Shown here: positions 1,422 to 10,498 of the stretch, one piece after another | Position numbering within the stretch: position 1 is the first letter of the stretch | How the letters are laid out: each line of letters begins with the position of its first letter | From: a virus | Taxonomy: Duplodnaviria > Heunggongvirae > Uroviricota > Caudoviricetes | Length of the DNA: 13,323 nt | Virus record (IMG/VR): IMGVR_UViG_2565956709_000005 | Location: 1-13,323 of that record | Direction: 5' to 3' (one strand) | Program-made: the position numbers and the translations under genes | Notes under the pieces: generated by a model | Database searches by the model: none | What the model saw: only the letters and a program-made list of their open reading frames with translations | Told to the model about the DNA's origin: nothing

Positions 1422-3893
1422 TTAAAAATCAGCCTGATTCGGGATCAGTTTTTGCCAGATAACTGAAACGTATTTTGCCTGGTAACGGGCGTCATCAAGT
1501 GCATTATGGCGCTCACCTTCGAATGGAATAGCCGTTCTGGCATCGAAGTCTATGGCTTTCCCCAGCTCAACGATTGTGCGTACATCGCGATCGTTGTAGT
1601 AACGCCATGGGCAGGGGATCCCCTGCCGTTCGTATGAACGGCGCAAAATCGTGTTGTCGAAGTTGGCTCCATTTCCCCAGACCTGAACAAAAAATTCGCC
1701 GGAGTTTTCGTCGATAAATTCCCGCAATTGCAGCAGTGCATCATCTAACGGGATTTCATCGGTCAGAATGGCAGATTGCGCCTCCCGTGATTGCTTAAGC
1801 CACCATTTAATGGTGCCACGATCAATGACTCCGCCAGCAGTATCCATATCGATGGTCTTACTAAATTCCGGCCCCATATCTCCGGTTTGCGGATCGAAAA
1901 ATATTGCACCTATTGAGATAAGCGGGGCATCGGGATTTTTTCCCATGGTTTCAAGGTTGATCATCATGTGGTGCCACATTCTGCTGGTGGATGTGATAAC
2001 GTGATGACCGTTCATCGCAATTAAGGGATCTGCCGTCTCGCCAGTTTCACTATCGCTGGCGTGATCCTGAGCGCTACCAGCATTCTCCTTGTGTGGATGT
2101 TCAGCGCCTTCCATTTCCTTCGGATCATTTTCCTGAACTTCAACCTGATTCTCTTCATCGAATGTTTCCTGGTATGTTGCGTCGCCCATTACCGCGCCAC
2201 AATCAGGGCAGTTGCCACCACCGCTTTGACCGCAGGCGGTGCAGACTTTTTCCGGTTCCTGTTGCGCTACTGGCTCAGGTTGTTTCGTTTCTGGCTCGTT
2301 TTGTAACGCATTTGGGCTGTTTTGTTCCGCTTTCTGGCCGTTCTGTTCCGTTTCTTGTTGGTTCTGATTCACTGAATCGCGGGTTTCAATCCCCTTCACC
2401 CATTTCGGATCATTCGGGTCGCTAATCCCTGCAACAAATTCACCACGTGATACAGCAAGCAACTTATTGGCGTCAGGCTGGCTGATATTGGCTGCCTGCA
2501 TAATTTTGTTTACTTCGTCAGCGGTAACTTTTACCGGCTCTGGTTGTGCGATCGTGTCAGATGCACCAGTATTTTGTTGTGAACCTGAGTATGTACTGTT
2601 TTTGCGGGCGAAATATTCTTCTTTCGTGATTTCAGTAGCCCCGGCAGCCAGCGCCTTATCCAGACCAGAAAGTTTGTTTGCGCGACCGTATTTTTCGCCA
2701 TCCTTGTCGGTGAAGAGGAAGTAGAACGGCCCTTCACGCTCTACAGATGGTTCGACTTCCACTTTGCATTCGGTTTTTTCGTTGTCCGGAATTGCCGTTT
2801 CCACTGCATCAGTTTCTGGTACTGGCGACGAGAGAGTATCAGTTGCGCTCTGATTTCTTCCTTCATCTTCAAACACGCCCTTTGTAGTCAGGTATTCAGT
2901 AATGTATTTGTTCAGTGCCACAGGGTCTTTGTGAATGTCGATCGGACGTTCACGGACAAGGCCAAAAATAGTCTGGCGGTCGTAGCGAAGGGCATCAGGC
3001 TGTTTGCGCATTGATGCCGAGATACGCTTCCAGTCTTCGCGGTCGTTGTCGATAACTTCATTTTTTGCCCAGCGATGGATGCTGCCGTCAATGTTTCCGG
3101 CATCCACATCACCAGGCCAGAGAGCGTAGGCCAGTTCGTCATCCAGTGTTTTCCATGTCTGCTTGTATTCGCGATGAATGGCAGCAATGACCGGGCTGAT
3201 TTTTCCTGTTGAATTTTCAGTGTGCTGTTGATTGGTTCTGGCGCGGGCGAGATCAACAACAGACGTGTATTTTCCGGTTTCCTTGCGTTCACCTTCGCGA
3301 CGTTTTTTCCAGATGCGCATCTCTGCCTGAATTTCGGGCCATTTGGCACCAGGCTTACATTTATGCTTAACCCACCCGATGGCATGCAGCTTAAGCTCCG
3401 GATACATGGCGTTAACTTCTGGCATTTTCATCAACGCTTCAACGATATGTCCGTCGAATGTTGCCATGTCTTCCTGCAACAATTCCTGTGCGCTAATAAC
3501 CATATCAACGGTGATGTTTTCACATGTGTCGAACTTAACCATGACAGCGTTCTGTACTTCAGGGGACAGCTTGTCAAAATTGACGTTCATCGGATCGGAT
3601 TCTGGTTCGACCGGAATAAAGGAAGCGGATTCCTCATCCCAGCGGTTTTCCTGCATATATTCAGCATCCCAGGAATCGAGGGCAGGGCGGGGTATACCGG
3701 GTTTATCCTCGCAGACAAGAAATTTATAAGCGCAGTCCTGAGCAGCCGGATAATGTTCCAGGAATTGCCAGTGAAATTTTGCGCGGGCGCGACGTTCATC
3801 ACCGGCTTCAATGGCAGTGGCTACAGCGACGGCACCTTCTTCCTTTATTGCCTGTTCGTCCGGAATGGCGGCGCAAATAAAGACTTTACTCAT
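1422..3893 (-). CDS. Large multidomain exonuclease, RecE / exodeoxyribonuclease VIII-like by position, 823 aa, with C-terminal DnaQ-like (DEDDh-type) 3'-5' exonuclease domain
   Basis: Long ORF with ATG at 3893 and a GAGG about 12 nt upstream. C-terminal ~180 aa carries DnaQ-family-like motifs (...VWGNGANFDNTIL... and ...HNALDDARYQ...). Middle has a Q/E/P-rich low-complexity linker and a CxxC-x9-CxxC zinc-ribbon-like motif (CTACGQSGGGNCPDCG). Segment LLAVSRGEFVAGISDPNDPKWVKG matches my unverified recollection of E. coli RecE. Sits where lambdoid phages carry exo/recE, directly upstream of xis-int. Confidence 0.6.
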   Translation of the reverse strand: MSKVFICAAIPDEQAIKEEGAVAVATAIEAGDERRARAKFHWQFLEHYPAAQDCAYKFLVCEDKPGIPRPALDSWDAEYMQENRWDEESASFIPVEPESDPMNVNFDKLSPEVQNAVMVKFDTCENITVDMVISAQELLQEDMATFDGHIVEALMKMPEVNAMYPELKLHAIGWVKHKCKPGAKWPEIQAEMRIWKKRREGERKETGKYTSVVDLARARTNQQHTENSTGKISPVIAAIHREYKQTWKTLDDELAYALWPGDVDAGNIDGSIHRWAKNEVIDNDREDWKRISASMRKQPDALRYDRQTIFGLVRERPIDIHKDPVALNKYITEYLTTKGVFEDEGRNQSATDTLSSPVPETDAVETAIPDNEKTECKVEVEPSVEREGPFYFLFTDKDGEKYGRANKLSGLDKALAAGATEITKEEYFARKNSTYSGSQQNTGASDTIAQPEPVKVTADEVNKIMQAANISQPDANKLLAVSRGEFVAGISDPNDPKWVKGIETRDSVNQNQQETEQNGQKAEQNSPNALQNEPETKQPEPVAQQEPEKVCTACGQSGGGNCPDCGAVMGDATYQETFDEENQVEVQENDPKEMEGAEHPHKENAGSAQDHASDSETGETADPLIAMNGHHVITSTSRMWHHMMINLETMGKNPDAPLISIGAIFFDPQTGDMGPEFSKTIDMDTAGGVIDRGTIKWWLKQSREAQSAILTDEIPLDDALLQLREFIDENSGEFFVQVWGNGANFDNTILRRSYERQGIPCPWRYYNDRDVRTIVELGKAIDFDARTAIPFEGERHNALDDARYQAKYVSVIWQKLIPNQADF

Positions 3894-3988
3894 TTTGTTT
3901 TAACCTCATTACAGATTTCAGGGTGAACGAATCCCTGCCATTGCTGGCATTTTTAATCCGTTGGTATGGCGTTAATATGGCTGGCGGG

Positions 3989-4177
3989 TTATCCAGCCGG
4001 TATTTCGTTATTCAGGTTCAGCGATACTTTTTTTAACGGGAGGCATTCACCGGGGATTTTTTGTTCGTCCCTTACCTGAATGCAGGATGACTTACTGTCA
4101 TAAATTCCGGTAATCACATTTTGTGGCTCACCCGTTATAAGAAAAACGGTCATCACCAGTGCAAATGCTGAAGTCAC
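3989..4177 (-). CDS. Small protein with N-terminal hydrophobic segment (predicted single transmembrane helix or signal anchor), 62 aa, unknown function
   Basis: ORF in track. N-terminus MTSAFALVMTVFLITG is hydrophobic. Start overlaps the stop of the upstream ORF in an ATGA arrangement (4174-4177). Lies in a visibly AT-rich segment. Confidence 0.5.
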   Translation of the reverse strand: MTSAFALVMTVFLITGEPQNVITGIYDSKSSCIQVRDEQKIPGECLPLKKVSLNLNNEIPAG

Positions 4178-4362
4178 TGCTGTTCTCCGATAATACCAAG
4201 TTCAAGAAGGGCAATTCTGGAAAGTATGGAATTATCATTGAGAAGATAAGGTTCATATTTTCTCATCTTAATGGCATCTTCCGTAAACTCCCGGTTACTG
4301 AGCAGAACACCAATATCAAAACAACCTTCAGACGTATTAACGTTTGGTAATAACGTTTCCAT
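4174..4362 (-). CDS. Small hypothetical protein, 62 aa from ATG 4362 (ORF track gives a 97-aa version from 4467)
   Basis: The internal ATG at 4362 is preceded by GAGGA with a 7-nt spacer; I saw no comparable ribosome-binding site at 4467. Translationally coupled to the downstream 62-aa membrane protein ORF. Confidence 0.45.
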   Translation of the reverse strand: METLLPNVNTSEGCFDIGVLLSNREFTEDAIKMRKYEPYLLNDNSILSRIALLELGIIGEQQ

Positions 4363-4927
4363 TATCGCGTCCTCAACAATGAATTTTGTGATGCGGTGCC
4401 TGGTGCCTCCAGGTGACGTTAACCAGTTAACAATTAACGCCGGATACAGAGAATCCACCCATAACACTGTTTTTGGTTTTAACTGTTCCGCGTGCGCTCA
4501 GCCGCATTCACCACATCACAAAATTCACTTTAAAAAGGGCGGCAGAGCAGTCACGGAGTAAAACTGATACCGCCAAACGTCACCAGAAAATTGATAACAG
4601 AGGGCGTTGCAGCGGAGTTGTCACTTAAGCGTATGGTCAACCTGACAACCCGGTGTCCTCAACGGAGGAAGGAATAACCCCGCCATACTTACCGCCGCGC
4701 CATTTCGCGGAGTGCCACAACCGGAAGCGCACGGTCGAACTAAATTTAACGACACCGTACAGAGAGACCAATTTCGCCGTGCGCTTTCGCTTTATGCCCT
4801 GACTTTTCAGGGACATATCCTTTCAGTAAACTGTCAGTGCCGGATGTTCACCCGTGTCCGGCGCACGCACTCCACCTGACCCGTGGAGAACTCCTTAATT
4901 ACCAACCTTAGCTTCGTTGGTTAGCTA

Positions 4928-5146
4928 TTAACGCGGGTATGTAACCATTCTGGCAATGCTTAATGCCGCTGCTTTTTCCAGCCTGGTGATATCCTGCTCC
5001 AGAGCGGACAGATTTTCAGCCTGCTTAGTCCTGGCTTCATTGGCCCATTTCAGATCCTGCGCTGCATTAATTTTCTGGCGCATCCACTCATAAAGTTCAT
5101 CATCGGTATAGTCTGGCGCGATGATGACGGGTTCTCGTTTCTGCAT
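4928..5146 (-). CDS. Small early-left protein, 72 aa, predicted helical; unknown function (positional analogue of kil/cIII-type small early genes)
   Basis: ORF in track; same strand and operon as neighbours. No recognisable motif. Confidence 0.5.
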   Translation of the reverse strand: MQKREPVIIAPDYTDDELYEWMRQKINAAQDLKWANEARTKQAENLSALEQDITRLEKAAALSIARMVTYPR

Positions 5147-5175: not shown

Positions 5176-5304
5176 TCAGCCGTTAGATTTTGCCGAGCTG
5201 GAAAGCGCCTGTTTAAACTCACTGAAGCTGAGAGCTTCTTCGCCTTCGGCAAGGCCTTCGAAGTATTCTTCGTAAGCCTTTTCCATGATTGTGTCGAAAT
5301 CCAT
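5176..5304 (-). CDS. Small acidic protein, 42 aa from ATG 5304 (56 aa if ATG 5346 is used); absent from the ORF track (below 60 aa)
   Basis: Hand-translated on the minus strand: MDFDTIMEKAYEEYFEGLAEGEEALSFSEFKQALSSSAKSNG. The ATG sits 2 nt after the stop of the upstream 78-aa ORF, with GGTGAG just upstream. Confidence 0.35.
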   Translation of the reverse strand: MDFDTIMEKAYEEYFEGLAEGEEALSFSEFKQALSSSAKSNG

Positions 5305-5305
5305 A

Positions 5306-5542
5306 TCACTCACCTGAGTTTCTTTCCAGCCAGCGACGGGCACCATTTTCGGTTTTAAACGTTTTGCTTTTGGTATACGTCATTGCGGTGAACGTGCCGT
5401 CCTGGTTGGGGAACACGCCACATACCAGAGATTCGCTGTTGCCAAGATCGATAGTATCCATGCTGACCTCATTTCCCCTTAACGCCGGGGGAGCGGAACA
5501 AAAACCTGCTGCATAGTTATTAAAGTTGAACCCTGCCGTCAT
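5306..5542 (-). CDS. First gene of the leftward early operon, 78 aa, unknown function
   Basis: ORF in track. GAGG lies 8 nt upstream of the ATG on the minus strand. About 95 nt downstream of the predicted P_L -10 element. Confidence 0.55.
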   Translation of the reverse strand: MTAGFNFNNYAAGFCSAPPALRGNEVSMDTIDLGNSESLVCGVFPNQDGTFTAMTYTKSKTFKTENGARRWLERNSGE

Positions 5543-5642: not shown

Positions 5643-5686
5643 ACTATAGGAAATGCCTAATTACTTGTCAATAGGCTATGCCTAAT
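5643..5686 (-). promoter_or_regulatory. Predicted leftward early promoter P_L with two operator sites (O_L)
   Basis: On the minus strand: -35 TTGACA (5671..5666), 17-bp spacer, -10 TATAGT (5648..5643). Two 17-bp dyad sites of the form ATTAGGC-N3-GCCTAAT at 5670-5686 and 5645-5661, centres 25 bp apart. Shares a 23-bp exact inverted repeat with the O_R region. Confidence 0.5.
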
Positions 5687-5779: not shown

Positions 5780-6256
5780 TTAAGTTCCTGTCTTGGTGAT
5801 GTTCTGGCTTTTCCGTTTTGATTCTTGATTTTTCAGATAGTTAGCTACCTTCATTTCCATTGCGGCAATGTAGGCGCGAACGTCATGATCAACCCAACTA
5901 GGCTCCGTAGCATTTCCAGATAAGAGGAAAGCCACAATTGCTCTTTTTTCATCAGAGGCGGCTTGATAAAGGCTGTTTATGTCTAAAAGTTCACTTTTTG
6001 TATCTGAAGTGGATGGGGTTGGTATGGGGTATTCGTTAAGCCCCCAATGCTCTGGACCAACCACATCAGAAAAGAAACGCCATAGTTCTGGAAGTTTGTC
6101 TTTACTTATCGAACCTTTCTTAATCCAGTCATGGATTGATGGTGGTTGGACTTTGAAATGACGTGCGATTTCCGCCTTTGATTTGACGGCTCCTGATGCA
6201 ATTTTTTTGTTAATGGCCTGCTCAATCGCTCGGCCTAAGTCTTTACCACTAAGCAT
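5780..6256 (-). CDS. racR: Prophage repressor with HTH DNA-binding domain, RacR-like, 158 aa
   Basis: ORF in track, divergent from a cro/ydaS-like gene. HTH-like segment SKAEIARHFKVQPPSIHDWIKKG. Resemblance to E. coli Rac RacR (also 158 aa) is from memory, not a search. Confidence 0.75.
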   Translation of the reverse strand: MLSGKDLGRAIEQAINKKIASGAVKSKAEIARHFKVQPPSIHDWIKKGSISKDKLPELWRFFSDVVGPEHWGLNEYPIPTPSTSDTKSELLDINSLYQAASDEKRAIVAFLLSGNATEPSWVDHDVRAYIAAMEMKVANYLKNQESKRKSQNITKTGT

Positions 6257-6353: not shown

Positions 6354-6380
6354 TGTTGCGTGTTTTTTGGAGTTCATTCG

Positions 6381-6704
6381 ATGAAAAAAGATAACTATTC
6401 ATTCAAACGAGCTTGTGCTGTTGTCGGTGGGCAATCAGCAATGGCTAGGCTTTTAGGTGTATCTCCTCCAAGCGTAAATCAATGGATCAAAGGTGTACGT
6501 CAGTTGCCTGCTGAGAGATGTCCTGCGATTGAACGAGCAACAAAAGGTGGTGTCCTGTGTGAAGAACTTCGTCCTGATGTTGATTGGACATACTTACGAC
6601 GCTCGTCATGTTATTCGCAGAATATGTCGATGAAGCAACCAAATGACGAAAACGATCATACCCGAAGCATCAAGAGGCAAATGATTCATGAAAATCAAAC
6701 ATGA
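6381..6704 (+). CDS. ydaS: Cro-like HTH regulator, YdaS-like, 107 aa from ATG 6381
   Basis: GGAG lies 9 nt upstream of ATG 6381 (track starts at GTG 6360). HTH segment GGQSAMARLLGVSPPSVNQWIKG. Start matches my recollection of Rac YdaS (MKK.NYSFK.ACAVVGGQSAMARLLGV...), unverified. Confidence 0.7.
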   Translation: MKKDNYSFKRACAVVGGQSAMARLLGVSPPSVNQWIKGVRQLPAERCPAIERATKGGVLCEELRPDVDWTYLRRSSCYSQNMSMKQPNDENDHTRSIKRQMIHENQT

Positions 6705-7113
6705 GCACATCCGCATGGCGATGAATGCTTGGGCATACCCTGATGGTGAGAAAGTTCCTGCAGCTGAAATAGCCCGGACTTATTTCGAACTGGGGATGAC
6801 GTTCCCTGAACTGTACGACGACAGCCATCCGGAAGCCCTGGCCCGTAATACACAGAAAATTTTCCGTTGGCTGGATAAAGACACCCCTGATGCTGTTGAA
6901 AAAATTCAGGCTCTGTTACCGGCGATCGAAAAGGCAATGCCGCCTCTGCTGGTGGCCCGTATGCGCAGTCACAGCTCTGAGTATTACCGGGAGATTGTCG
7001 AACGGCGGGATCGGCTGGTGAAGGATGTCGACGATTTTGTTGCGTCAGCGGTTGTTTTGTATGACCAGATGAATCGCGGCGGCCCGGCAGGGAATGCTGT
7101 GGTGATGCACTAA
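6688..7113 (+). CDS. ydaT: YdaT-like protein (toxic partner of YdaS in Rac, kept silent by RacR), 141 aa
   Basis: ORF in track; overlaps ydaS-like stop by 17 nt; begins MKIKHEHI as I recall for YdaT. Mostly synteny-based. Confidence 0.6.
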   Translation: MKIKHEHIRMAMNAWAYPDGEKVPAAEIARTYFELGMTFPELYDDSHPEALARNTQKIFRWLDKDTPDAVEKIQALLPAIEKAMPPLLVARMRSHSSEYYREIVERRDRLVKDVDDFVASAVVLYDQMNRGGPAGNAVVMH

Positions 7114-8618: not shown

Positions 8619-8975
8619 ATGGAAATAAAACCAGAGGATGAGTTAAGCAATATCGTTTTATTTCCGGTAAAAGAGGATGACCCTCGTAATCAGGTTAATT
8701 TTCTTTATGAGCCATCGGAAAGACCATATTGTCATCACGCCTCTGTCCGGGTTGACGAAAAAGAGCGTCAGGTCCGCTGTAAAATCTGCGGTGCAGTTGT
8801 GGAGCCATTTGACTGGATGCTCTCTGTGGCGAAAAGAGAAACCAGACTGGCAGATGATGTAAGGCTCTTGCGTCAAGAGGAGCGGGAAAGGCGAAAAAAT
8901 ATAGAAAAGCTAATTCAGATTGAGCGTAACGCGAAAGCGCGGATACGCAGGGCGACAAAATCCAGAACTGAATAA
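8619..8975 (+). CDS. Hypothetical zinc-ribbon-like protein, 118 aa from ATG 8619 (track version starts at GTG 8562)
   Basis: Strong ribosome-binding site AAGGAGAGGAG directly upstream of ATG 8619. Cys/His cluster YCHHASV...CKICG. Basic coiled-coil-like C-terminus. Confidence 0.55.
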   Translation: MEIKPEDELSNIVLFPVKEDDPRNQVNFLYEPSERPYCHHASVRVDEKERQVRCKICGAVVEPFDWMLSVAKRETRLADDVRLLRQEERERRKNIEKLIQIERNAKARIRRATKSRTE

Positions 8976-9068
8976 TTAAATTTAGCTCTGTTAAAAATTT
9001 AATCCTTAACCGGAGGGATTTCTGCACCCTCAGAACATCAGGAGGCCGCCCGAAAGGGCGGTAGTTAA

Positions 9069-9420: not shown

Positions 9421-9733
9421 GCGAGGTTAATTATCAGGAAGGGCATGAAACGGCGGGGCAAGCAAAAACAGTGGCATGGCGATATCGCTACGTGAAAAAA
9501 AAGGCGTTACGGACTTTCAGGGGAAGTAGTGGTCTGGTGACTGGAAATATGTACCGAAAAAAGAGGATTGTAACGACAGGCCGAACTATGAAATTCAGGC
9601 CTTATTCACTGCCCCGCCAGTCCCGGTTACATCAGAAGAACTGGTTAAAGCTGTGCACTTTTATGAACAACTAAAACGCGAAAATCCACCAGCATCCGGA
9701 AACCTGATTACAGATTCCCAGATAAGGCAATGA
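9417..9733 (+). pseudogene. Disrupted or recoded gene: translationally coupled start at 9417, A8 run with A_AAA_AAG heptamer, protein-like coding in the -1 frame downstream, in-frame TAG at 9527-9529
   Basis: Frame 0 from 9417 is open to 9674 but its C-terminal half is compositionally odd (K/R-rich). The -1 frame from 9530 to 9733 reads protein-like (WSGDWKYVPKKEDCNDRPNYEIQALFTAPPVPVTSEELVKAVHFYEQLKRENPP...) but has no start codon and follows a TAG. Slippery heptamer at 9497-9503. Confidence 0.3.
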
Positions 9734-9903
9734 GCTACCTGGCGCAGAACGGGCTGATAAGTATGGGGAATGTTTTACGATGAATATTTAGACTAAAGAG
9801 TTTGTAACGCTATGTAAGTGATTTTTTCTGGTTTAGATATTTATATATCCGGCCAAATTGAGGTGTGTTTAAATGTAATTGCACATTGATTGTAGGAGGA
9901 ATA

Positions 9904-10166: not shown

Positions 10167-10221
10167 GACTGCGGGTGCTTGAGGCTATCTGTCTCAGGCA
10201 TGAACACCAAAAGGCAGATAG

Positions 10222-10295
10222 AGAAAAGCCCCAGTTAACATTACGCGTCCTGCAAGACGCTTAACATTAATCTGAGGCCATATCTATGCTCTACA
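10222..10295 (-). ncRNA. sok: Predicted Sok-like antisense RNA covering the mok ribosome-binding site and start codon
   Basis: Inferred from hok-locus architecture. Minus-strand terminator-like structure (hairpin GCGUC...GACGC nested in a GGCCUCAG/CUGGGGCU stem, then UUUUCUCU) ends near 10222. Weak candidate promoter on the minus strand (-35 TTGCCT 10329..10324, -10 TAACCT 10306..10301). Boundaries approximate. Confidence 0.35.
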
Positions 10296-10498
10296 CACGT
10301 AGGTTAGCCTCTTACGTGCCGAAAGGCAAGGAGAAGCAGGCTATGAAGCAGCAAAAGGCGATGCTAATCGCCCTGATCGTCATCTGTTTAACCGTCATAG
10401 TGACGGCACTGGTAACGAGGAAAGACCTCTGCGAGGTACGAATCCGAACCGGCCAGACGGAGGTCGCTGTCTTCACAGCTTACGAACCTGAGGAGTAA
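10286..10498 (+). CDS. mok: Mok-like reading frame (in-frame N-terminal extension of Hok), 70 aa
   Basis: ORF in track. Starts 19 codons upstream of hok in the same frame, an arrangement I recall for MokC/HokC. GAGG lies 8 nt upstream of ATG 10286. Confidence 0.6.
   Translation: MLYTRRLASYVPKGKEKQAMKQQKAMLIALIVICLTVIVTALVTRKDLCEVRIRTGQTEVAVFTAYEPEE
10343..10498 (+). CDS. hok: Hok/Gef-family type I toxin (small membrane-depolarising peptide), 51 aa, HokD/RelF-like
   Basis: Sequence MKQQKAMLIALIVICLTVIVTALVTRKDLCEVRIRTGQTEVAVFTAYEPEE has the Hok/Gef signature (N-terminal transmembrane helix, ...LVTRKDLCEV.IRTG..EVA.F.AYE...). AAGGAG lies 10 nt upstream. Confidence 0.88.
   Translation: MKQQKAMLIALIVICLTVIVTALVTRKDLCEVRIRTGQTEVAVFTAYEPEE

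Follow-up and report, generated by a model that had tools for sequence, protein, structure and literature searches.

What are the two small, overlapping genes that lie between the exonuclease gene and the early-left genes of this phage DNA, and did they arrive there as a foreign cassette? A preliminary description of the window (here, the whole stretch that was analysed, 13,323 nucleotides) regarded positions 3989-4467 as an AT-rich insert of separate origin, carrying two minus-strand open reading frames (ORFs). Both frames, 3989-4177 (62 amino acids) and 4174-4467 (97 amino acids) with an overlap of four bases, were borne out by our analysis, and we consider it highly probable that the segment belongs to a Qin-like lambdoid prophage integrated at ompW, where it forms the promoter-distal part of the dicBF (early-left) operon. 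The gene pair is a known prophage module, rediscovered here and already annotated in public records. What distinguishes it from the well-studied K-12 copy is that most of dicB and all of ydfD form a strongly diverged, mosaic allele.

Gene content of the early-left segment

On the minus strand, the elements follow the order promoter, ydfA, ydfB, ydfC, DicF, structured leader, dicB, ydfD, exonuclease, xis and int. Those which bear on the identity of the pair are as follows:

5643-5671, minus strand: promoter-like site, TTGACA-17-TATAGT, at the dicBp / pL position (consensus scan, 11/12 match)
5306-5542, minus strand: ydfA (DUF1391), with a probable internal true start (Pfam PF07151, 94.5 bits, residues 29-76; phrog_751)
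5176-5346, minus strand: ydfB-like small ORF, start codon uncertain (phrog_2061, E 4.8e-37)
4928-5146, minus strand: ydfC (96% amino acid identity to K-12 YdfC; phrog_1744)
4537-4588, minus strand: DicF sRNA, antisense regulator of ftsZ, with terminator hairpin (Rfam RF00039)
4363-4536, minus strand: dicB leader, non-coding and structured (folding, inverted repeat, weak Rfam STnc100 match)
4174-4362, minus strand: dicB, cell-division inhibitor of 62 amino acids, divergent W allele (Pfam, NCBIfam, PHROG, RefSeq, BLASTP)
4174-4177, minus strand: GTGA start/stop overlap, the GTG of ydfD on the TGA of dicB (direct sequence reading)
3989-4177, minus strand: ydfD-like gene (DUF1482), 62 amino acids, GTG start (Pfam, PHROG, alignment to K-12 YdfD)
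3897-3949, minus strand: conserved spacer, about 50 nt long, that separates ydfD from the exonuclease gene (92.5% identity to K-12)
1422-3893, minus strand: exonuclease, 823 amino acids (Pfam Rv2179c-like 3'-5' exoribonuclease domain, 217 bits; phrog_2082, full length)

The site at 5643-5671 is promoter-like in sequence and, by its position, a candidate promoter for the operon. DicF, located between ydfC and dicB, matched its Rfam model over positions 1-52 of 52 with 76.7 bits (gathering threshold 48), and this stretch is identical to that of K-12. At the position of the ydfB-like ORF, a gene is annotated both in the identical strain and in K-12. The spacer downstream of ydfD forms small hairpins (z -2.55) and is kept even where the N-terminus of the exonuclease differs among relatives. 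The exonuclease itself is intact in the window and is the full-length counterpart of the pseudogene found 3' of ydfD in K-12 Qin, which is truncated by IS2.

DicB and its true start

The product of the upstream ORF matched the DicB family of Pfam (PF05358) over profile positions 1-62 of 62, with 127.3 bits against a cut-off of 27 and an E-value of 1.8e-37. The 62-residue protein was also recovered by NCBIfam NF049927 (111 bits, cut-off 100) and by phrog_1251, and the identical sequence carries the name DicB in RefSeq (WP_000449172.1). Alignment by BLASTP to K-12 DicB, named 'cell division inhibition protein DicB' in RefSeq, showed 38 of 62 residues to be identical (61%), with the N-terminal 33 residues as the conserved part and most differences lying in the C-terminal 44. 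A PDB sequence search with DicB returned no match.

The boundary at 4467 did not hold, and the 97-residue frame was rejected as over-extended: the Pfam match covers its residues 36-97 only, the 35-codon upstream extension contains stops in two of the nine loci compared, and the extension overlaps a conserved RNA structure. The coding region of dicB ends, on its upstream side, at an in-phase internal ATG at 4362, which has a Shine-Dalgarno sequence of its own (GAGG, 4371-4374) eight bases upstream. Because dicB starts at this ATG and the extension is interrupted by stops, positions 4363-4467 are non-coding. The correction shows the 97-residue frame to be an artefact, produced by reading through a structured RNA leader.

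The nine loci were the window, PPompW, three other E. coli chromosomes, K-12 and the phages Tritos, mEp460 and 606R7. We distinguish two allele families, 'W' (the window, PPompW, UTAK-10, LTC201 and CFSAN004176) and 'K' (K-12, Tritos, mEp460 and 606R7). The preliminary description had made its gene calls depend on intact frames in relatives, and both dicB and ydfD are intact in 9/9 loci, that is, in the window and eight relatives. Within the allele group of the window, dN/dS was 0.10-0.14 for dicB and 0.26-0.34 for ydfD, compared with 0.29-0.52 between the allele groups; both frames are under purifying selection. With dN/dS of 0.10-0.34 inside the group and Pfam E-values of 1.8e-37 and 2.8e-15, the two ORFs are far beyond what chance would produce. 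The plus-strand ORF at 4159-4350, which had been raised as the frame that might instead be conserved, is broken by four in-frame stops in K-type relatives and has no Pfam match; we discarded it as an antisense shadow.

A structured leader shared with kil genes

The leader at 4363-4536 has a minimum free energy of -88.3 kcal/mol (z -4.79). It contains an inverted repeat (4380-4398 / 4509-4527) and is predicted to form a long-range stem of about 28 bp, with arms at about 4509-4536 and about 4371-4398, at the base of which the U-tract following DicF would pair with the Shine-Dalgarno region of dicB. In a consensus fold of eight loci, changes within the long stem keep the pairing (U-G to C-G, G-C to G-U), the sole exception being one A-C mismatch in 606R7. 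Two loci have a replaced leader interior and have kept the arms, and the inner hairpins break where the interior is replaced. A double change was seen in one of 60 pairs across the eight loci, in an inner hairpin, all other changes being one-sided and pair-preserving; covariation carries no information here because the sequences are too similar.

Compared with Rfam RF02076 (STnc100), the leader gave a full-length match of 38.7 bits, which is below the gathering threshold of 47 (E 1.2e-6). STnc100 is known from the literature as a family of prophage sRNAs with a relationship to PasD (bioRxiv 10.64898/2026.05.13.724894). A homologous leader of about 165 nt, with 83-90% identity to 4378-4542, lies directly upstream of kil/kilR genes in Rac-SA53, Shigella phage 75/02 Stx, phiSTEC1589-Stx1c, PhiR5_2 and a phage recorded from Actinobacillus. 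These kil-linked copies score similarly against STnc100, and an exonuclease or recE gene is found a few small ORFs downstream of them.

The kilR gene of Rac and the kil genes of Stx and other lambdoid phages thus share with dicB the same slot, as the first gene after a homologous leader and upstream of exonuclease/recE. Kil, like DicB, inhibits FtsZ-ring formation, but the two take different routes: Kil reaches FtsZ by way of ZipA, and DicB uses MinC. DicB nevertheless has no sequence relationship to Kil (no Pfam Kil match), and kil is not followed by ydfD. When both ORFs of the segment were scanned against Pfam (E <= 0.01) for membership of Kil, SieB or Ral, only DicB and DUF1482 were returned. 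The proposal that the pair occupies the place where lambda carries kil, sieB and ral is therefore right as to the slot, which is the kil slot of Rac- and Stx-type lambdoid phages, and wrong if it is taken to mean the genes, which are not kil, sieB or ral. The presence of the same leader before the non-homologous dicB and kilR suggests a common control element for a slot of toxic genes, and it is conceivable, though rather unlikely, that the STnc100-like leader which they share serves phage division inhibitors specifically, as a gate on their translation.

The YdfD-like protein

The downstream ORF encodes a protein that matched Pfam PF07358 (DUF1482) over positions 1-57 of 57 (56.4 bits, cut-off 25, E 2.8e-15) and phrog_1092 (E 1e-32), and that shares 48% amino acid identity over the full length with K-12 YdfD, the 'lysis protein YdfD' of RefSeq. 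Features kept between the two are the hydrophobic N-terminus, GEP, two cysteines, EQKIPG-C-P and a C-terminal EIPAG. The RefSeq name for the protein of the window is 'DUF1482 family protein' (WP_000199480.1). No NCBIfam model matched it, a PDB sequence search gave only noise (E ~0.5), and a literature search for 'DUF1482' found no paper. The two cysteines are invariant across W, K and Klebsiella DUF1482 sequences, and in Klebsiella phages the DUF1482 genes have neither dicB nor DicF nearby.

A transmembrane-like segment had been noted at the N-terminus of one product, and this was upheld in so far as the YdfD-like protein begins with the hydrophobic stretch MTSAFALVMTVFLITG. The Kyte-Doolittle maximum over 11 residues is 2.81, at residue 4, but over 19 residues it is only 1.39, which makes the stretch short for a classical transmembrane helix. 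Since the hydrophobic run extends over only about 16 residues (about 13-16) and lacks a positively charged n-region, its membrane topology is uncertain; the product is probably a small membrane-associated protein.

A GGAG Shine-Dalgarno sequence for ydfD lies inside the 3' end of dicB. The overlap of the two genes at 4174-4177, previously given as ATGA, reads GTGA on the coding strand (tcac on the plus strand). A GTG start for ydfD is found in the window and in PPompW; the other W alleles and the K alleles have ATG, and there the overlap is ATGA. The change from ATG to GTG is silent in dicB (CAA to CAG) and probably lowers the output of YdfD.

A mosaic allele and its distribution

Nucleotide identity to K-12 along the segment, read in the direction of transcription, changes abruptly:

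4640-4309, minus strand: DicF, leader and first 18 dicB codons, 98.8% identity
4308-3950, minus strand: dicB codons 19-62, ydfD and 3' spacer, 54.7% identity
3949-3897, minus strand: spacer before the exonuclease gene, 92.5% identity, the downstream edge of the divergent block

Codons 19-62 of dicB together with ydfD are a recombinational mosaic allele. The surrounding organization is that of the dicBF operon of the K-12 Qin (Kim) cryptic prophage, with the same order (ydfA-ydfB-ydfC-DicF-leader-dicB-ydfD-exonuclease), the same lengths (62 amino acids; 62/63 amino acids) and the same four-base start/stop overlap; at the DNA level, DicF and the leader match K-12 at 99% of positions, and YdfC is 96% identical. 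In contrast, dicB codons 19-62 and ydfD show 55% nucleotide identity to K-12, corresponding to 61% amino acid identity for DicB and 48% for YdfD, and the ATG start of K-12 ydfD is GTG in the window. The immunity region is also unlike that of K-12: the window has a YdaS/YdaT-type pair, and the ORF at the repressor position is without a family match. Synteny is the same in K-12 Qin, the phages Tritos and mEp460, and the PPompW prophages.

The closest relatives are the PPompW prophages of STEC (for example LC567818) and the ompW prophages of E. coli 120899 and O111:H8, with 97-100% DNA identity over the whole segment, identical proteins and the GTG start of ydfD as well, so that there is essentially no difference. 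The 747 bases around the pair are 100% identical to the E. coli 120899 prophage adjoining ompW, in which the genes are annotated as DicB (WP_000449172.1) and 'DUF1482 family protein' (WP_000199480.1); to the STEC PPompW prophages their identity is 97%. The window belongs to this PPompW / 120899 ompW prophage group. Among 5426 complete E. coli genomes, the W-type ydfD was found in 539 and the W-type 3' half of dicB in 576; with a longer query, at least 80% of the segment was covered in 1016 genomes.

Proposed function

The functions of the K-12 homologues are well described. [quoted passage not shown] K-12 DicB binds MinC and reaches the septum via ZipA, and the DicB-MinC interaction also blocks ManYZ, which makes cells about 100-fold more resistant to lambda and to other phages that need ManYZ (PMC6832061). 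When K-12 YdfD is expressed alone, nearly all cells lyse, and the lysis is prevented by co-expression of DicB or SulA and thus depends on division (PMC8835842). In the same study, from which alone (a single laboratory's work) the mechanism is known, YdfD was found to bind IspG in pull-down, ITC and FRET experiments, and overexpression of ispG or supply of the IspG product relieved lysis (PMC8835842). [quoted passage not shown]

By analogy with these homologues, the DicB of this allele would bind MinC, be targeted to the septum by ZipA and block both division and ManYZ-dependent phages, and the YdfD-like protein would cause lysis and inhibit IspG, with suppression by DicB or SulA. We propose that the prophage repressor keeps the operon off and that, once repression is lifted, transcripts would arise from the promoter upstream of ydfA, with read-through of the DicF terminator allowing expression of DicB. 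DicB would then bind MinC, and ZipA-mediated delivery to midcell would lead to the dismantling of FtsZ rings and to filamentation; the same DicB-MinC interaction would prevent lambda-like phages from bringing in their DNA by way of ManYZ. Translation of ydfD would be coupled to that of dicB, and its product could bring about division-dependent lysis, reportedly through inhibition of IspG in the MEP isoprenoid pathway, and DicB made from the same mRNA would restrain this lysis by halting division. The four-base overlap and the GGAG within the 3' end of dicB fit translational coupling, through which YdfD would never lack its brake. Strong divergence affects the last 44 residues of DicB and almost the entire YdfD sequence, so that MinC/ZipA binding and IspG targeting are extrapolations for this allele. 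The earlier suggestion of host takeover, superinfection exclusion or a small toxin with a partner agrees well with the published functions of the K-12 homologues.

In causing lysis of growing or dividing cells as a small protein, YdfD resembles the single-gene lysis proteins phiX174 E, Qbeta A2 and LysM, and the block in cell-wall precursor supply proposed for YdfD-IspG is a further likeness (PMC8835842). The sequences are unrelated, however, and YdfD lies in the early-left operon and not in a lysis cassette. A tailed temperate phage such as that of YdfD would be expected to achieve release via holin and endolysin.

Alternative readings of the gene pair

The relationship between the two proteins could be read in other ways. 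First, the C-terminus of DicB and YdfD could be a co-evolving toxin/antidote pair, inherited as a matched allele set, in which one protein directly neutralises the other as in a type II toxin-antitoxin system. The divergent block consists of exactly dicB codons 19-62 and all of ydfD, as one swapped unit between conserved flanks, the genome counts of the W-type ydfD (539) and dicB 3' half (576) are similar, the genes are probably translationally coupled, and co-expression of DicB abolishes lysis by YdfD. However, SulA, which is unrelated to DicB, abolishes lysis as well and can substitute for it in the K-12 literature, which points to an indirect effect via division arrest (PMC8835842). Physical adjacency alone accounts for the joint inheritance, and DUF1482 genes occur in Klebsiella phages away from any dicB or DicF. 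Assessed for membership of the type II class, the two ORFs gave no match to a toxin-antitoxin family in Pfam, and they are located inside a long, repressor-controlled phage operon. We consider direct neutralisation improbable and favour restraint of YdfD through division arrest.

Second, the YdfD-like protein could be exported, with its N-terminus serving as a signal peptide or anchor and its two cysteines forming a periplasmic disulfide, so that it would act on the envelope from outside and not on IspG in the cytoplasm, with a role, for instance, in exclusion or in the timing of lysis. The hydrophobic run of about 13-16 residues is closed by small residues (ITG|E, VSG|E), much as an h-region followed by a cleavage site would, the low 19-residue hydropathy maximum (1.39) would suit such a signal, and both cysteines are invariant in W, K and Klebsiella sequences. 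On the other hand, the positively charged n-region is missing, pull-down, ITC, FRET and ispG rescue indicate a cytoplasmic target for the K-12 protein, and its C-terminal domain by itself still kills to some extent, as the citing paper states. Export is in our judgement very unlikely, and less probable than direct neutralisation; a cytoplasmic action on IspG is the reading that we retain from K-12.

The remaining question is that of a foreign origin. The GC content of the segment (3989-4467) is 41.8%, below that of the window (48.1%), of the exonuclease gene (49.3%) and of the 679 bases at 4468-5146 (50.5%). The segment is thus more AT-rich than its surroundings, as had been claimed, but the dip is modest: 5.8% of windows of the same size are as low (the 6th percentile of the window), and deeper troughs exist elsewhere. 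The lowest 479-bp window, starting at 9639, has 37.4% GC, and windows of 358 bp reach 37.4% when starting at 8878-8995 and 34.6% when starting at 9532-9891. Both allele families are equally AT-rich (dicB 36-38% GC, ydfD 42-44%; in the K-12 allele, 36% and 44%, respectively). As it is common to K-12 dicB and ydfD, the low GC is a trait of the family and no evidence of recent import. Moreover, with the first 18 codons and the leader 99% identical to K-12, the boundary of divergence runs through dicB and not around a cassette. Recent import of a foreign AT-rich cassette unrelated to the surrounding operon, which the GC contrast (41.8% against 48.1%) and the sharp fall in identity to K-12, well delimited at about 4308 and at about 3950, might suggest, has in our view next to no likelihood, given that dicB and ydfD fill the same slot in every relative examined, that the K-12 allele is just as AT-rich, that identity to K-12 stays at 99% across the entire leader and the first 18 dicB codons, and that the GC dip reaches only the 6th percentile.

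The idea of a separately acquired insert was accordingly not sustained: the pair is fixed in a conserved operon, at the same slot of ydfABC-dicF-dicB-ydfD in every relative examined. Low GC is found in both allele families. What does set the segment apart is the mosaic allele within it.

Implications

The functional work on DicB and YdfD has all been carried out on the K-12 allele, while pathogenic E. coli commonly carry the W allele (STEC PPompW). It is conceivable, though we regard it as rather unlikely, that the divergent W allele, present in about 10-19% of complete E. coli genomes, has changed its partner specificity; for example, the C-terminus of DicB may engage another host or phage-receptor target, or YdfD may hit a target other than IspG. 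If partner specificity has changed, the two allele families would be the outcome of a diversifying conflict between host and phage.

Start codon of ydfD and the boundary ahead of the exonuclease gene

The ydfD gene begins at GTG (4175-4177) in the window and in the PPompW prophages (STEC prophages at ompW), whereas ATG is the start in the remaining W-type alleles (the dicB-ydfD family to which the window belongs) and in all K-type alleles compared (the family of K-12 Qin). The exchange leaves the amino acid encoded by the overlapping dicB codon unaltered (CAA to CAG); attenuation of the lysis protein may result. Further downstream, the spacer of about 50 nt 5' of the exonuclease gene (3897-3949, minus strand) is kept in both allele families, also in those loci whose exonuclease N-terminus is different, and marks the downstream limit of recombination. 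Across the ydfD stop codon lies a GC-rich hairpin (3978-3999, minus strand) with no U-tract 3' of it; the predicted fold of 3890-4010 has a z-score of -2.55.

YdfD homologues in Klebsiella phages

A DUF1482/YdfD homologue of about 44% identity, with both cysteines kept, is encoded in Klebsiella phage ST16-OXA48phi5.1 (locus L008, 2501-2692) and recurs in search matches H91-H96. The Klebsiella phage gene sits between cI and an exonuclease gene, preceded by a hydrophobic ORF of 46 amino acids and another of 37 amino acids. Neither the annotation nor inspection of the neighbouring ORFs showed a dicB, and Rfam gave no DicF match at the locus.

Immunity region and hok/sok locus

The following features were located in the window:

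5780-6256, minus strand: ORF of 158 amino acids occupying the repressor position and oriented divergently to the Cro/YdaS-like gene
6360-6704, plus strand: YdaS-like (Cro/HTH) gene, cro/cII position
6688-7113, plus strand: YdaT-like gene, cro/cII position
10173-10348, plus strand: hok/sok-type type I toxin-antitoxin locus (Rfam sok)

Rac likewise carries a YdaS/YdaT-like pair at the cro/cII position, and the immunity region of the window is therefore not of the DicA/DicC type found in Qin, although its left operon resembles that of Qin. The 158-amino-acid ORF had no match in Pfam or PHROG; the corresponding region of strain 120899, an E. coli with a prophage beside ompW, is annotated in a different frame as a 112-amino-acid 'LexA family protein', and window and strain may thus diverge in this region. 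The sok match scored 117 bits against a gathering threshold of 59, and hokD is annotated at the matching place in strain 120899.

A structured leader shared by division inhibitors

Between DicF and dicB lies a structured leader:

4363-4536, minus strand: structured leader

It is predicted to form a long-range stem of 28 bp in which the dicB Shine-Dalgarno sequence is also paired, and its match to STnc100 in Rfam was below threshold. Leader and DicF together (4353-4599) recur at 98% identity over 247 bases, without any annotation, in the 254-kb jumbo Aeromonas phage AP1 (H22, MT713136.1, 249906-250152), and PP818812, a phage recorded from Actinobacillus, contains a Rac-like kil region; both cases may reflect contamination or wrong host assignment in the records.

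Leader homologues of 83-90% identity lie directly 5' of kil or kilR in Rac-type and Stx-type phages:

L012, 1467-1665; L013, 1474-1663; L014, 1167-1374; L015, 1174-1358; L016, 1167-1361: kil/kilR-linked leader copies
L013, 1653-1707; L014, 1364-1414; L016, 1363-1412, all minus strand: DicF-like hairpins, by Rfam DicF score

It follows that division inhibitors without homology to each other are preceded by one and the same RNA element. The DicF-like terminator hairpins stand just 5' of the kil-linked leaders, differ in their 5' single-stranded regions and score 29-41 bits, below the gathering threshold of 48; they may represent diverged DicF-type sRNAs.
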